From a virus (Duplodnaviria > Caudoviricetes): DNA of 64,000 nucleotides. Position 1 is the first letter of the stretch; every line of letters begins with the position of its first letter. The translations under genes were made by a program, and so were the position numbers. This document shows, piece by piece, positions 26,313-64,000 of this stretch. Under the pieces are notes generated by a model. That model worked only from the letters and a program-made list of their open reading frames with translations, was not told the origin of the DNA and did no database searches. Location: positions 1 through 64,000 of IMG/VR virus record IMGVR_UViG_3300021400_001366; one strand, given 5' to 3'.

Positions 26313-26319
26313 TAGGACT

Positions 26320-26365
26320 CTGCGCGAATCTGAACCAAACATAGATTCTTGGGAGGTTCGCGCAG
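26320..26365 (+). promoter_or_regulatory. CRISPR leader-like inverted repeat, copy A
   Basis: ctgcgcgaatc...ACATAGA...ggttcgcgcag; paralogous to 28104-28152, both about 190 nt upstream of the first repeat. Confidence 0.6.
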
Positions 26366-26401
26366 CATTTCAGGAATGTTGGCGATTTAATTGCGCTGAC
26401 A

Positions 26402-26512
26402 TTGGGCGACCTACCGCCCATAAGCCGAGAAAGTGATACATAATGTTAAGTATAATACACTCGGTAAATCACATTTGTGCAAAGTTGAATATCAGAATTG
26501 TGCGTGTTTGCG
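26402..26512 (+). ncRNA. putative Cas12f tracrRNA, copy A
   Basis: hairpin GGGCG-ACCTAC-CGCCC whose loop complements the repeat end GTAGG; ATAAGCCGAGA...CTCGGTAA stem; homologous to 28188-28298. Confidence 0.8.
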
Positions 26513-26662
26513 GCATCAACTTACACGCAAGTGTGAGTTGTAGGAACGATCTGATAAAGTATTGCATCAACTTACGCGCAAGTGTGAGTTGTAGGCACGA
26601 TCTGTAAGTGTATTAACGTCTCTCATTCTGGCATCAACTTGCACGTAGGTGTGAGTTGTAGG
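26513..26662 (+). CRISPR. CRISPR mini-array A: three 32-nt repeats GCATCAACTTACACGCAAGTGTGAGTTGTAGG; spacers 19 and 35 nt
   Basis: repeats at 26513-26544, 26564-26595, 26631-26662; palindromic; followed by hairpin gtcggc..gccgac. Confidence 0.9.
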
Positions 26663-26720: not shown

Positions 26721-28097
26721 ATGAAGTTCAATAAAGTTATCAAGATTTATGCAGACCTCGACAGGTCGCAGCCTTGTAATATAGATTTCTACGGTAAGGA
26801 CAGTTTGACCTCGGTAATTCGTGGATTGCAGTATGATGTCAGAAGTCTCAAGAACCGTACCATGCGAATGGGTTACGATTACGACCAGGCGCAGTTCGAT
26901 TATTACAAGTTCATCGAACGCTGCAAGGCCGAAGTAATGGCAGAGCATTTCCCATCTGTAACTCCGCTGGATTTTTCAAAGTACAAAACCTTTGATGGGT
27001 TCATATATGACTCACTTGCAAGCGGCTATGTCAATATCAATAAAGGAATTGTGGCTTCCCTAACACGTAAGATTTGGGGTGAGTACAAAAACGACAAGAA
27101 GCAAATTGTATCTGGCGAAAAGTCGCTGCGTACATACGGCAAAGATCAGCCGATACCTATTCCCGCGAAACTCTGCAAATTGGATTTTGTGGACGATTTC
27201 AACTACGTGTTCACCGCTTCGCTGCTTTCATCTGGTTTGCAAAAAGAACTCGGCATGAATCGCGGTGGTATCAAGTTTATTCTGCGAGATCAGACCGAAA
27301 GTGAACGCGCTATCCTGAATCGGCTTGTCAGCGGCGAATACAAATTAACCGAATGTCAGCTTGCATATGACCCGCGCAAGAATCGCAGGACGAAGCAGTT
27401 TCTCGGCTGGTATTTCTGCATCGGCTATTCCTTCGAGAAAGACACGTCGAATCCAGAATTGGATAAGAACAAAATCCTTGGCGTTGACCTGGGCGAAACG
27501 AATGTAGTTTACTGCGGATGGAACGGCGACCCCTACTTCAAGAAGTATGTTCCTGGCAGCGAACTCAAAAAGTTCAATAACGTCATCGATAAGCGCAAGC
27601 GCGAACTTCAGATGAGCAGAGTTACAAGGGGAGGCGGTTCCATTGGACACGGCAGAAAATGCGCAATGAAAGTTGTGGATAAGCAAGGCGAGTATGTTCA
27701 CAACTTCATGGAAAACAAAAATTGGCATTATGCGCATTTCGTGGTTGATACAGCCATTGAAAACGGCTTCGGTGTAATCCAGATGGAGGATTTGTCGGGG
27801 ATTACGAACAGCGAAAAGTGTAATCGCCGCTGGACTTTTTACAGCTTGCAGCAAAAGATCACGCAAATTGCCACCGAGAACGGCATTGAGGTCAGGAAGA
27901 TAAACCCGAAGCACACCAGCCAGCGTTGCTCAAAATGCGGGTTTATTTCAAAGGATAACCGAAAGACACAGGCGGTTTTCAAGTGTACGGCTTGCGGGTT
28001 CATGAAAAATGCCGACCACAATGCGGCGATGAACATTTCGATTAGCAATATCGAAGAACTCATTGAACAGCAGTTGAAGGTGCAAAACGCTGCTTAA
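26721..28097 (+). CDS. cas12f: Cas12f1-like (type V-F) miniature RNA-guided nuclease, catalytic motifs intact
   Basis: 458 aa; RuvC-I ILGVDLG, RuvC-II IQMEDLS, zinc finger CSKC/CTAC, RuvC-III NADHNAAMNI, GHGR motif; arrays on both sides; no tnpA. Confidence 0.88.
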   Translation: MKFNKVIKIYADLDRSQPCNIDFYGKDSLTSVIRGLQYDVRSLKNRTMRMGYDYDQAQFDYYKFIERCKAEVMAEHFPSVTPLDFSKYKTFDGFIYDSLASGYVNINKGIVASLTRKIWGEYKNDKKQIVSGEKSLRTYGKDQPIPIPAKLCKLDFVDDFNYVFTASLLSSGLQKELGMNRGGIKFILRDQTESERAILNRLVSGEYKLTECQLAYDPRKNRRTKQFLGWYFCIGYSFEKDTSNPELDKNKILGVDLGETNVVYCGWNGDPYFKKYVPGSELKKFNNVIDKRKRELQMSRVTRGGGSIGHGRKCAMKVVDKQGEYVHNFMENKNWHYAHFVVDTAIENGFGVIQMEDLSGITNSEKCNRRWTFYSLQQKITQIATENGIEVRKINPKHTSQRCSKCGFISKDNRKTQAVFKCTACGFMKNADHNAAMNISISNIEELIEQQLKVQNAA

Positions 28098-28103
28098 CAT
28101 TCA

Positions 28104-28152
28104 CTGGTGCGAACGAATAGCTTACATAGAATCCCTGATACCTTCGCACCAG
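28104..28152 (+). promoter_or_regulatory. CRISPR leader-like inverted repeat, copy B
   Basis: ctggtgcgaa...ACATAGA...ttcgcaccag. Confidence 0.6.
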
Positions 28153-28187
28153 ATTGTAAGTATTCCGATGATTTAATTGCATTGGAA

Positions 28188-28298
28188 TCGGGCGATCTCA
28201 CGTCCATAAGCCGAGATAGTAACTTTAAAATGTGGAAGTGATACACTCGGTAATCATACTTGCGCAAAAATTGAATAGCGTGATTGTGCATGTCTGCG
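28188..28298 (+). ncRNA. putative Cas12f tracrRNA, copy B
   Basis: hairpin GGGCG-ATCTCA-CGTCC whose loop complements the repeat end TGAGA; ATAAGCCGAGA...CTCGGTAA stem. Confidence 0.8.
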
Positions 28299-28528
28299 GA
28301 TTCAATTCACGCGTGTGTACGAATTGAGAGATTCGCTTCATTCAAGCGCTCTTCCAGTTCGCCGATTCAATTCGCGCGTGTGTACGAATTGAGAGCTGGA
28401 GAAGCTCGTGATATTTCGTGATCTCGGCTGATTCAATTCGTGTGTGTGTGTGTGGATTGAGAGTCAGCAAGAGCGAAAACACACTACTGCGCTTAAGATT
28501 CAATTCACGCGTGTGTACGAATTGAGAG
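28299..28528 (+). CRISPR. CRISPR mini-array B: four repeats GATTCAATTCACGCGTGTGTACGAATTGAGAG; spacers 33, 34 and 33 nt
   Basis: repeats at 28299-28330, 28364-28395, 28430-28463 (degenerate, TG expansion) and 28497-28528. Confidence 0.95.
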
Positions 28529-37222: not shown

Positions 37223-37297
37223 AGTCCTTTAGTAGAGAAGTAAGCACACATGGCTTTGACCCATGGGAAGGTGGGGCAGTACCACCAAGGACTACCA
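37223..37297 (+). tRNA. trnQ: tRNA-Gln(UUG), atypical T-loop
   Basis: acceptor agtcctt/aaggact, anticodon arm catgg-ctTTGac-ccatg, T-loop GGCAGTA, CCA. Confidence 0.8.
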
Positions 37298-37351
37298 ACG
37301 GCAAGTTTCACGATGTTAGCCTAGAAAATCGAAAGCGGGGATTCCCGCTGT

Positions 37352-37441
37352 GGCTACTTGGTCGAGTGGTTTAAGACGGCGCACTTGAAATGCGTTGACG
37401 GGTAATACCGTCCGTGGGTTCAAATCCTACAGTAGCCGCCA
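37352..37441 (+). tRNA. trnS: tRNA-Ser(UGA)
   Basis: cloverleaf with long variable arm, ctTGAaa, GCCA end. Confidence 0.95.
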
Positions 37442-37726
37442 CATTCAGGGTCGCGCCCTGACGATCTCGCTGCGACACAGTGAGCCAGAATGTTATCTTG
37501 TCTTGACGGAACACATACGCGGGACAGAGTGTTTAGAGCCTAGCGGTGTGGGAAGTAGTTGCAACCAAGGCAGAATGTCGGTTAAACCGCTTGCACCTTC
37601 CGGTTCATAGGGTAGCAAGTTAAGCCACTTACCTTGACTTCGGAGATTAGGTGTCGATGATGTTGTCGAGGACAAACGAAGTGGTAGCCGAATTTACACT
37701 CATGCGGTTTGTCGGCTTTTGATTAT

Positions 37727-37802
37727 GCTTCCGTAACTCAATTGGCAGAGCAGCGCACTTGTAATGCGCAGGTTGTAGGTTCAAATCCTATCGGAAGCTC
37801 CA
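37727..37802 (+). tRNA. trnT: tRNA-Thr(UGU)
   Basis: cloverleaf, ctTGTaa, CCA. Confidence 0.95.
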
Positions 37803-37803
37803 T

Positions 37804-37955
37804 CGGGAACTAGCTCAGTAGGTTAGAGCAGCGGCCTTGGGGCGGTAGTGTAAAGAGCACACTAGAAAAGCAAGAGTCTAGTAGCGTAAGGGCGGTACTT
37901 AGACGCTCCACCAATAAGCCGTGTGTCCAGAGTTCAAGTCTCTGGTTCCCGACCA
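37804..37955 (+). tRNA. trnI: tRNA-Ile(UAU) split in the anticodon loop by a 75-nt insert (halves 37804-37838 and 37914-37955)
   Basis: joined halves give a 77-nt cloverleaf: cgggaac/gttcccg, gctc/gagc, gcggc-ctT|ATaa-gccgt, cagag-ttcaagt-ctctg, ACCA. Confidence 0.88.
37839..37913 (+). ncRNA. nested tRNA-like element ending in CCA
   Basis: ggggcg/cgctcc-A-CCA acceptor, gtgt/gcac D arm, ctaga/tctag arm with 10-nt loop, taag-GGCGGTA-ctta T arm. Confidence 0.8.
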
Positions 37956-37959
37956 TCAT

Positions 37960-38043
37960 GCCCGATTGGTGGAATAGCAGACACTCGGCACTTAAAATGC
38001 CGTACCGTTAGGTGTGCAGGTGCAAATCCTGTATCGGGCACCA
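37960..38043 (+). tRNA. trnL: tRNA-Leu(UAA)
   Basis: cloverleaf with variable arm, ctTAAaa, ACCA. Confidence 0.95.
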
Positions 38044-38075
38044 TTAATATTGAATAGGAAAAGGAGACTAAGATC

Positions 38076-38711
38076 ATGCGTGAAGAAATGACTGTCCACC
38101 AGGCACTCTGCGAACTGAAGGTGCTGAGCAAGCGCGTTCAGAAGGGAATCCAGACCATTAAGCCGATCTCCGTGAAGGAACATGCTTCTTCCAAGGTTGA
38201 CGGCATGGACGTTGCCGAGTTCAAGAAGAACGCGGAAAGCGACTATGCGTCCGTGACCACCCTGATTAACCGCTGGATGGCCATTAAGGAAGCAATCAGC
38301 AAGTACAACGCTTCCAAGGTTGTCACCGTAGCCGGTAAGGAGTATACCATCGCTCAGGCGATTTGGTATATGAACTACGACCTAGCCGATAAGACGCAGT
38401 TGCTCGAACGTCTGACCAAGATGTACAACACCTGCAACGCCAACATCGAAAAGGCCAACGGCGAGAACCTTAACCGCCGCGCTGAAGCTGCTATGGAGAG
38501 CATCTACGGTGCAAAGGAAAAGGCGAACAGCGATGACTACCTCGAGGGCCTGGAAGCATACAAGACCGCACACGCGATGGAGCTGGTTGACCCGCTCAAG
38601 ATCCGTGATGTGATCGAGAAGCTGGACGAGGAAATCTCCAACTTCAAGTCTGGCGTGGACGCTGCCATCCAGATTGCGAACGCTACTACTACGATTGTGA
38701 TCGAGTATTAA
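38076..38711 (+). CDS. helical/coiled-coil protein with MTVHQALxELK N-terminus
   Basis: 211 aa, strong RBS, strongly biased codon use. Confidence 0.85.
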   Translation: MREEMTVHQALCELKVLSKRVQKGIQTIKPISVKEHASSKVDGMDVAEFKKNAESDYASVTTLINRWMAIKEAISKYNASKVVTVAGKEYTIAQAIWYMNYDLADKTQLLERLTKMYNTCNANIEKANGENLNRRAEAAMESIYGAKEKANSDDYLEGLEAYKTAHAMELVDPLKIRDVIEKLDEEISNFKSGVDAAIQIANATTTIVIEY

Positions 38712-38718
38712 GCCTTTG

Positions 38719-39098
38719 CTTGCCTATGCAGCGAAAACCGTAAACCCGCTTTCCCTCCGTCGATATGCCGTCATGACTGAGGTTAAAAGTTAAACAGACG
38801 GTAACAGAAGAAATTGATATTTTCTTAATAAGTAAATTTGATTTGCGCTATGGCGTAAGTGTAAATTTATTGATTACTGAAAATTGATTATTTCTTACTG
38901 ATTGACTGAATATTGAATATGCCGCGCGTTCTTTTTATAGGGTGAATAGAAGATTATTCAACAAAAAAGTTGGCGGCACTAATACTCAATATTGAAGGAT
39001 TTGAATACTGCTGATTGGTTATTAAAATCCATGAAGCAAGGTTCGCCATTGAAAACGGATTGGGCTTCGGTTGTCCTCATGGCTGCTGTGTAGGCAAG
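38719..39098 (+). ncRNA. putative ~380-nt structured RNA
   Basis: 14-bp closing stem 38719-38732 / 39085-39098, several internal hairpins, no ORF. Confidence 0.55.
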
Positions 39099-39157
39099 AC
39101 CGTTATAAAATTACGATTTTATCTCAATAGAAAAGCAGGAATTTAGGTACTTTTAAA

Positions 39158-39553
39158 ATGGCATTTTTCAAGAAAAAAGTGCAGTCTGAGCCTCCTAAAA
39201 TCCAGGAGCCGCCAAAGTGTACGCATAAGTTCAAAGACTTTCCGTGGTATGTTGAATACAAGTATTATCCCTGTGAGAAGCGATTTAAAATCGTAGTATA
39301 TGAACCATATGTTTGCGTCCTATGCGGGAAACGGATAGACAAAGAACTTTATAGACATGAAAGTTCTGGAACCAAGAAAGATGCAGATGCTTTAAAGGAA
39401 GCCATTGAAGAAAAGTACGGCGACAAAATTGAAGATCGTGTACTCATTGAGGATGAGATCAACGATTTGCAGTTGGTTGACCGCGAATACCTGAAATTCT
39501 ACGAGATGATAAAGACAGGCAAGTTCCATCCAATAGAACTTAAACTGGAATAA
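39158..39553 (+). CDS. hypothetical protein
   Basis: ORF with CxH and CxxC motifs. Confidence 0.7.
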   Translation: MAFFKKKVQSEPPKIQEPPKCTHKFKDFPWYVEYKYYPCEKRFKIVVYEPYVCVLCGKRIDKELYRHESSGTKKDADALKEAIEEKYGDKIEDRVLIEDEINDLQLVDREYLKFYEMIKTGKFHPIELKLE

Positions 39554-39631
39554 CAGCGTGTAGCTCAGTTTGTTTAGAGTGCTTGCCTTGGGAGCAAGAT
39601 GTCGCGAGTTAGAATCTCGCCACGCTGACCA
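39554..39631 (+). tRNA. trnP: tRNA-Pro(UGG)
   Basis: cagcgtg/cacgctg, cttgc-ctTGGga-gcaag, ACCA. Confidence 0.92.
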
Positions 39632-40073
39632 TCGGGTGAAATGATATATCCCGAAAATCCTTAACCTCTCATATATTTATACACAAAGGCGACGACAGTG
39701 CAAATATCTGAGAGTTTGCCCGACCAGGGAAGTCTCACTCGGTCATGGGAGTGTAGGCGCAACGCCAGATGCTTCGCCACTAGAAACAGGTCAACCATCT
39801 GGGTAGGACGTTGTTTACATTACTGAATTTGAGTAGGTAGTCTCTTTACTGAATTGAACGGCAGCGATCTACATGACGGACGCACTACCTGAAATGTGCC
39901 GTGGAACCCATAGCCAATCCCGATAACAAACCGCGAGGCGTAAAGAAAAACATTACAGTTCTGCGCGGAGTAGCAGCCCAATGGTGTGGAGTGGTTCTGG
40001 CTGATCTCTGAAACAAGTCAAGGCCAGAGTGTAGCGTGTGAGATATTGCGGATTGATTATGGGTTTTGTCTTT

Positions 40074-40158
40074 GGCCGCGTGGCGAAATAGGCAAACGCA
40101 CTGCGCTTAGAACGCAGCACCATAGAGCTTATGGGTTCGAGTCCCATCGCGGCCACCA
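40074..40158 (+). tRNA. trnL: tRNA-Leu(UAG)
   Basis: ggccgcg/cgcggcc, ctgcg-ctTAGaa-cgcag, TTCGA T-loop, ACCA. Confidence 0.95.
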
Positions 40159-63303: not shown

Positions 63304-63690
63304 ATGGGAGTCAAGACTAACGAGCATCAGGCAAGGGCAGATTTGCAGTTAGTCCGCGATCTCTGGTCGAAGTATGTTAACAAAACCGTTTCATGGAGCT
63401 TGCTAAACAAGGTGCTCAACGGGTTTGTTGCGGATGGCTTTGAAACGGGTTATCTTGTGTTTGTCATGAAGTATATCATTGACCATCACAAGAAACTGAA
63501 CCATCCGCTAGGATTGAAGTATTACGTCGGAGATCAAGAAATCCAATCTGCCTATGCCAAATCAAAGATACCTAAGATAAATCCAGATCAGTTTAAAGTT
63601 GCCGAATCGCAGGACATTCCGCAGCCAGAATGTAGCTCAACGCCAAAGCGAGTAACAAGTTTTGCAGACATTCTTGGAGGTGGGACATGA
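63304..63690 (+). CDS. hypothetical protein
   Basis: ORF coupled to the helicase gene. Confidence 0.7.
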   Translation: MGVKTNEHQARADLQLVRDLWSKYVNKTVSWSLLNKVLNGFVADGFETGYLVFVMKYIIDHHKKLNHPLGLKYYVGDQEIQSAYAKSKIPKINPDQFKVAESQDIPQPECSSTPKRVTSFADILGGGT

Positions 63691-64000
63691 GAGACATAAA
63701 TGAAATTTCAGACGTTCAAGCAGAAAGCGGTATCATAGGTACATTAATCTATCACCCAGAGTTTATCATGTACTCTGACTACCTAAAAGCAAGCTACTTC
63801 ATCGGACGTGAAAATGGCGCGGTCTATTGGGCTATTGGCGAGTTGTACAAGGAAGGTATTACCACAATCGACGCTTTCAATCTCACGAATAAGATCAAGA
63901 GCAACCGCGCCGTCCAAAGGGTACTTGAAGAAAAGAATCTGATTAACGTCCACGAATACATTGAGTTATATAAGGAAACCGCAAGAAACTCTGTTGAAGA
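63687..64000 (+). CDS. dnaB: DnaB-like replicative helicase, N-terminal part (runs off the window)
   Basis: MRDINEISDVQAESGIIGTLIYHPEF...YF..EN..VYWAI.ELYKEG...ID, matching the DnaB N-terminal pattern; GGAGGTG RBS. Confidence 0.7.
   Translation, partial: MRDINEISDVQAESGIIGTLIYHPEFIMYSDYLKASYFIGRENGAVYWAIGELYKEGITTIDAFNLTNKIKSNRAVQRVLEEKNLINVHEYIELYKETARNSVE

Follow-up and report, generated by a model that had tools for sequence, protein, structure and literature searches.

Two similar neighbouring spacers in a phage-borne Cas12f locus that probably reflect two variants of one target site

A short repeat-spacer array in a phage genome (array A) holds two neighbouring spacers, A1 and A2, that read much alike, which raises the question of whether both are directed at one site in two related elements and, if so, which gene contains that site. 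The initial annotation placed it at the start of a helicase gene in competing relatives of the phage. The array lies in the window, i.e. the stretch of DNA that was analysed, which covers the first 64 kb of an IMG/VR virus record of 137.6 kb (89% complete). The features considered below are given by their window coordinates and strand:

26313..26512, + strand: tracrRNA-like module A, leading directly into the first repeat of array A
26513..26544, + strand: repeat 1 of array A, 32 nt, identical to the main repeat of the relative L002
26545..26563, + strand: spacer A1, 19 nt, AACGATCTGATAAAGTATT, absent from the sister array L011
26564..26595, + strand: repeat 2 of array A, with 1 mismatch to repeat 1
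26596..26630, + strand: spacer A2, 35 nt, the last (trailer-end) spacer, of which an exact copy is the last spacer in L011
26631..26662, + strand: repeat 3 of array A, a degenerate terminal repeat with 3 mismatches
26721..28097, + strand: cas12f, 458 aa (P0001), assigned by Pfam, PADLOC, and alignment with solved structures
28098..28295, + strand: tracrRNA-like module B
28296..28528, + strand: array B, with four 35-nt repeats and three spacers of 30-32 nt; its repeat differs from that of array A
63687..63716, + strand: start of the phage's dnaB-like gene, the site compared with A2 (a 21/30 match that is not clearly beyond chance)

Judged from its sequence, the locus is a phage-borne type V-F system without Cas1/Cas2. 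In it, a 458-aa Cas12f is combined with two arrays, and a separate tracrRNA-like module precedes each array. P0001 matches the Pfam Cas12f1-like TNB domain (PF07282, E 9e-21) and PADLOC Cas12f (E 4.5e-103, residues 27-451, nearly the full length), and it aligns over nearly its full length with the solved Cas12f 9nzq (E 2e-71). The RuvC motifs GVDLGE, IQMEDL, and NADHNAA and two CxxC zinc-finger motifs are aligned with 9nzq as well. The protein has the attributes of a V-F effector, being small and homologous to known Cas12f, with a split RuvC (D, E, D) and a zinc-finger/TNB domain. The adjacent repeats with variable spacers that also belong to a V-F locus are present in arrays A and B: spacers vary among the window, L011, and L002, and repeats and flanks are conserved. 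According to profile searches, neither Cas1 (PF01867) nor Cas2 (PF09827) is matched anywhere in the 137.6-kb record (89% complete), and no cas1 or cas2 adjoins the bacterial homologue of this Cas12f either. The adaptation genes cas1, cas2, and cas4 are present in many V-F loci, though not in all.

Compared with type V-F Cas12f/Cas14 of the 'V-U3' group (9nzq, 8j12, 7wju, and 8dzj), the window system shares the effector (458 aa, near-full-length alignments with E from 1e-68 to 1e-71), the conserved RuvC and zinc-finger motifs, a repeat with a short hairpin, 5' of the guide, a long tracrRNA-like structured RNA next to the array, and T-rich flanks at the two target sites that could be placed for its relatives. 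It differs in being carried by a rumen phage of ~140-160 kb with no Cas1/Cas2 in the record, and in combining one nuclease with two arrays of diverged repeats, the first repeat of each being fused to a tracr-like module of its own. It also differs in spacer length, since about a fifth of the phage spacers have only 19-28 nt.

The ~200-nt module upstream of the arrays is conserved in 11 loci of the Cas12f family. RNAalifold predicts 39 pairs for it, 18 of the 39 with compensatory changes, and the pairs of the repeat hairpin co-vary among relatives. By eye, AAGTTGA in module A is complementary to TCAACTT in repeat A, as is AATTGAAT in module B to ATTCAATT in repeat B; this stretch of 7-8 nt, complementary to the cognate repeat, co-varies between the two modules. 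We read the module as a putative tracrRNA. As for other elements, a consensus scan for promoters and terminators yielded sites in numbers no higher than in shuffled sequence. In the third repeat of array B (window 28427-28461), a (GT)n run takes the place of the hairpin loop, and identity to the reference repeat is only 66%.

The locus also bears a likeness to TnpB (IS200/IS605). P0001 is ~36% identical to ordinary TnpBs and matches the NCBIfam model of RNA-guided TnpB. Downstream of cas12f comes a scaffold RNA and then at once a guide; a scaffold RNA downstream of the gene with the guide directly after it is the TnpB layout (omega/reRNA). TnpB guides are typically ~16-20 nt long, a range that includes A1 (19 nt). 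In contrast to TnpB, however, the window locus stands without transposon context and has multi-unit repeat-spacer arrays, with spacers that vary between relatives.

All but two of the close Cas12f homologues fetched (54-92% identity) carry arrays. For these two, the L080 contig ends 235 nt past the gene stop, and no array lies within ~820 nt in L081. The homologues with arrays include a chromosomal copy in a Clostridia MAG. Spacer content turns over between sister phages. The relative L002 (92% identical) has six different spacers in array A, and L011, a metagenome contig of a sister phage with a 96% identical flank, has A2 exactly as its last spacer and three other spacers in place of A1. A1 and A2 are genuine CRISPR spacers of a phage-encoded Cas12f system. 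Since A2 is kept as the last L011 spacer and A1 is missing there, A2 is an old trailer-end spacer and A1 a lineage-specific one.

Of the 39 spacers in phage arrays, 8 are short (19-28 nt), compared with 0 of 13 in bacterial arrays. The arrays that contain them are those of the window (26545-26563), L002, L004, L065, L071, and L078. A 57-nt spacer in L002 resembles two spacers fused through loss of the repeat between them, and both L002 and L011 mix two repeat variants within one array. Outside phages, a 59-62% identical Cas12f occurs in Clostridia MAGs (L007, L068, L069, L070, and L080) at a fixed chromosomal site, between the genes for an FAD oxidoreductase and a flavo-diiron protein, near spoIIP and spo0A and with no cas1/cas2 nearby; where the contig extends far enough, it is accompanied by an array of 7-8 repeats. 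These chromosomal copies may point to the host group. The Cas12f homologues in 35 related IMG/VR phages are distant TnpB-like proteins only, and thus no further arrays came from those phages.

A1 and A2 are truly related to each other, beyond chance. As the initial annotation described, A1 and the first 19 nt of A2 are identical at 14/19 positions, in register and without gaps, and the reverse complements translate to NTLSDR (A1) and MRDVNTLTDR (A2). Among the 1326 in-register pairs that can be formed from 52 spacers of 13 related arrays, A1-A2 ranks first (binomial p 3e-5). The second-ranked pair (20/33) comes from L068, where every repeat except the terminal one has the same sequence, and it is also adjacent, only 39 of the 1326 pairs being neighbours. 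The top rank of A1-A2 together with the adjacent L068 pair argues for repeated sampling of one site, and not for the drift of a duplicate. Two homologous target sites are the most economical explanation of the likeness, and A1 and A2 probably reflect two variants of one target site. We infer separate acquisition, i.e. that the two spacers were sampled one by one from homologous sites, with confidence evenly balanced between yes and no.

In-register likeness of neighbours is seen in bacterial chromosomal arrays at L068:4814-4912 (20/33, also in L069 and L070) and at L007:5851-5949 (16/33). In both pairs, the intervening repeats are identical to each other.

The site may be a coding one. The synonymous differences between A1 and A2 that had been put forward to this effect are indeed seen, but they form a weak argument alone: five random substitutions leave at most 1 amino-acid change in 3.3% of trials in the named frame (p 0.033) and in 23% in some open frame (p 0.23 over all open frames).

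Alternatively, A1 could be no independent guide but the outcome of a 51-nt tandem duplication, covering repeat 2 and the 19 nt of A2 next to it, with later divergence, or else a product of recombination between arrays. Such a duplication yields exactly the observed layout, i.e. repeat, 19 nt, repeat, and 35 nt, with A1 in register with A2, which makes this a serious rival. Recombination is evident in these arrays, in the mixed repeats of L002 and L011 and in the irregular spacers of 19-28 and 57 nt, and the coding-like pattern of differences is non-significant once all frames are allowed. However, A1 and A2 differ at 5/19 positions, whereas the repeats that precede them differ at 1/32 and the flanks of sister phages by ~4%, and one sister is without A1. 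Repeat 1, moreover, equals the canonical L002 repeat and not repeat 2, and the short spacers in other phage arrays have no similar neighbour. The comparable L068 pair is 39% diverged between mutually identical repeats, hence drift of a duplicate cannot explain that pair. On balance, we consider an origin of A1 by duplication or recombination somewhat unlikely and retain two variants of one target site as the preferred reading.

As for the gene concerned, the helicase proposal derives A1 and A2 from the first dnaB codons of competing relatives, with the phage's own allele (21/30) escaping. The DnaB-like gene at 63687 does begin with ATGAGAGACATAAATGAAATTTCAGACGTT, encodes a Pfam DnaB N-terminal domain, and is identical to the reverse complement of A2 at 21/30 bases. 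When only the 657 ORF starts of the genome are considered, dnaB is the sole outlier (21/30, the next best having 17), and a shuffle test confined to these starts yields p ~0.005. The encoded L-[ST]-D also fits the DnaB family motif ELSD, and spacers of relatives match genes of the replication/recombination module of the phage family. However, the restriction to ORF starts was chosen after the match was seen, and the genome-wide p is ~0.12, 23 of 200 shuffled 30-mers (11.5%) having at least 21/30 at some place in the 137.6-kb genome. Over the full 35 nt, the dnaB site shows 21/35, and three other places in the genome are equal or better. A six-frame peptide scan covering 1.2 Mb places the dnaB start in a tie for the top, within a smooth tail of scores.

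Comparison with other DnaB sequences counts against the helicase start as well. Among the dnaB starts of 45 related IMG/VR phages, none exceeds 18/30 to A2, and 0 of 120 DnaB protein clusters begin like MRDVNTLTDR in what is a densely sampled family. The DnaB nearest to A2 in this comparison is the phage's own. In addition, T8 and R10 as encoded by A2 clash with the near-invariant S8 and [IV]10-Q11 of the family. A protein search for DnaB variants restricted to the N-terminus gave two proteins only and was uninformative. The start of an unrelated gene, that of the annealing protein of L041/L042, matches A2 equally well (22/35), which shows that such likenesses arise easily.

A degenerate pattern coding for the A2 peptide, searched in IMG/VR, JGI metagenomes, and GTDB, likewise matched only the array itself and three chance-level sites. 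IMG/VR contained no match to it, JGI metagenomes gave the array itself in the sister contig and one match in a soil-type contig that was judged chance, and GTDB (one genome per species) gave two matches, also judged chance, in a Pirellulales MAG and in Boudabousia. The three sites have 23-26/35 identity to A2, and their count is near the rough expectation by chance. With that genome-wide p, no nearer DnaB in relatives, and no protospacer, the helicase start as a target of A1 and A2 is left unsupported. It is one weak candidate for the target gene, which we regard as unlikely and which should not be carried forward as a result.

Searches with the five window spacers revealed no protospacer, neither in IMG/VR (A1, A2, B1, and B2), nor in 47 related phage records (for A1, the stretches around their dnaB genes), nor in the genome of the phage itself. 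Neither the exact 35-mer of A2 nor its PAM-proximal 19-mer occurs in IMG/VR, and the same holds for 20-mers of B1 and B2. With up to 3 mismatches allowed, the first 22 nt of A2 and the first 24 nt of B1-B3 have no site in the 47 related phage records (13 complete). According to blastn against INPHARED, A2 and the whole locus have chance matches only, and a BLAST comparison of all window spacers, A1 included, with the 10 kb on either side of dnaB in 48 related loci gave no match. The closest sites in the phage's own genome reach 22/35 to A2 and 15/19 to A1, and there is thus nothing for an allele of its own to escape from.

An 18-mer of A1 has two distinct sites in IMG/VR (L062:8772-8789 and L063:3441-3458), which were rejected as targets, their number being that of a rough chance estimate and the genes being unrelated (a T4-type tail-sheath-like gene in one and a 78-aa ORF in the other). 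The phages that carry them look unrelated and non-rumen. Both sites read NTLSDRP in the same frame, in unrelated genes, which is probably a coincidence.

The spacers might also be aimed at the bacterial host or at a plasmid, in the service of host takeover or regulation, and not at another phage. This alternative can draw on the CRISPR systems of huge phages (Al-Shayeb et al. 2020, PMC7162821) and on the close Cas12f homologue with an array in a Clostridia MAG chromosome. Against it, the A2 peptide-coding pattern has no relevant match in GTDB with one genome per species, both arrays gave nothing in BLAST against PLSDB plasmids, and the two placeable spacers of relatives match phage genes. We consider a host or plasmid target very improbable and continue with another phage as the presumed target.

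These two spacers emerged from a comparison of the family spacers (47-52) with the phage genome and ~1.1 Mb of related loci, by blastn-short and a six-frame peptide scan, in which nothing apart from one spacer of L071 and one of L078 was conspicuous. The last spacer of L071 (L071:2895-2930) matches a 60-aa gene of its own phage at 32/36 positions (L071:2128-2163, - strand), and this near self-target lies ~300 nt upstream of the array. The differences are at spacer positions 1, 3, 10, and 22, i.e. two synonymous third positions and two PAM-proximal ones (1 and 3); the spacer encodes KCSECRRQPYCK, compared with KCSECRRQPYCH in the phage itself. The first spacer of L078 (L078:5607-5639) matches the annealing-protein gene of the relatives L024 and L059 (7840-7872 in both), with 15/15 at the PAM-proximal end, 23/33 overall, and differences at third positions. 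The matched stretch belongs to the N-terminal portion of a conserved gene (212 aa) of related phages, which in L024/L059 we take to encode a Rad52/Sak-type annealing protein. The flanks of the placed sites are T-rich, namely GCTT(G), TATC, and TTTC, and the sites are homologous but inexact.

These matches bear on the broader claim that the spacers target competing relatives and the phage's own allele escapes. As a general idea it finds backing in L071, where the phage's own gene would be spared by seed mismatches, and in L078; for the window's five spacers it would be an extrapolation. The two cases support a model, read from spacer and target sequences, in which guides would come from alleles of genes of the phage family and the own copy would be protected by mismatches, and accounts of virus-borne mini-arrays (PMC6858448) and of CRISPR in huge phages (PMC7162821) agree with it. 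Matches to closely related viruses were seen only for the L071 and L078 spacers, as homologous alleles and inexactly, and for none of the window spacers. As 0 of the 5 window spacers match the 47 related phage records (for A1, the stretches around dnaB), the notion of competing relatives is drawn from the arrays of relatives.

The explanation that we propose, to which as a whole we give a fifty-fifty standing, is the following. Array A would function as a mini-CRISPR array within a phage-borne V-F system that lacks Cas1/Cas2; it would be read on the + strand, each guide lying 3' of its own repeat. A1 and A2 would guide the nuclease to homologous sites in a single unsampled mobile element that exists in two sequence variants, most likely another phage of the same habitat. 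Of the two, A2 would be the older trailer-end guide common to the sister phage, and A1 a lineage-specific short guide directly behind the tracrRNA-fused first repeat. Interference would consist in RuvC cleavage of DNA adjoining a T-rich 5' flank.

Virus-borne mini-CRISPR arrays have been described in interviral conflict (Medvedeva et al. 2019, PMC6858448). In common with these and with the systems of huge phages (PMC7162821), the window locus has small arrays on a virus, no adaptation module, and spacer content that differs between sister viruses; spacers of two relatives match alleles from within the phage family, and for one of the two the gene is the phage's own and contains mismatches. Archaeal mini-arrays come with no cas gene and borrow those of the host (PMC6858448), whereas the window phage brings its own effector and putative tracrRNAs. 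In contrast to virus-borne mini-arrays, no target in a related virus was found for the window's five spacers.

Phage-borne CRISPR arrays aimed at other mobile elements are already known, and the general idea is not new. The locus is a compact natural example, with one 458-aa nuclease, two guide cassettes, and sister phages that have different spacer sets. If targets were found, it would give a view of how guides are chosen and renewed without adaptation genes and of how the own allele is kept safe. The paired similar spacers, here and in the bacterial relative, hint at repeated sampling of one site. A further-reaching idea, which may be called allele tracking and which we rate as quite unlikely, is that neighbouring spacers would be drawn repeatedly from one protospacer site as the allele of a competitor drifts (A1/A2 and the L068 pair), that the phage-only spacers of 19-28 nt would mark an unconventional addition of guides without a host integrase, and that own alleles would be safe through seed/PAM mismatches.

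Elsewhere in the window, a tRNA cluster (37223-40158) contains five or six genes, namely Ser-TGA, Thr-TGT, Leu-TAA, Pro-TGG, and Leu-TAG, with a further weaker Rfam match at 37223-37294.
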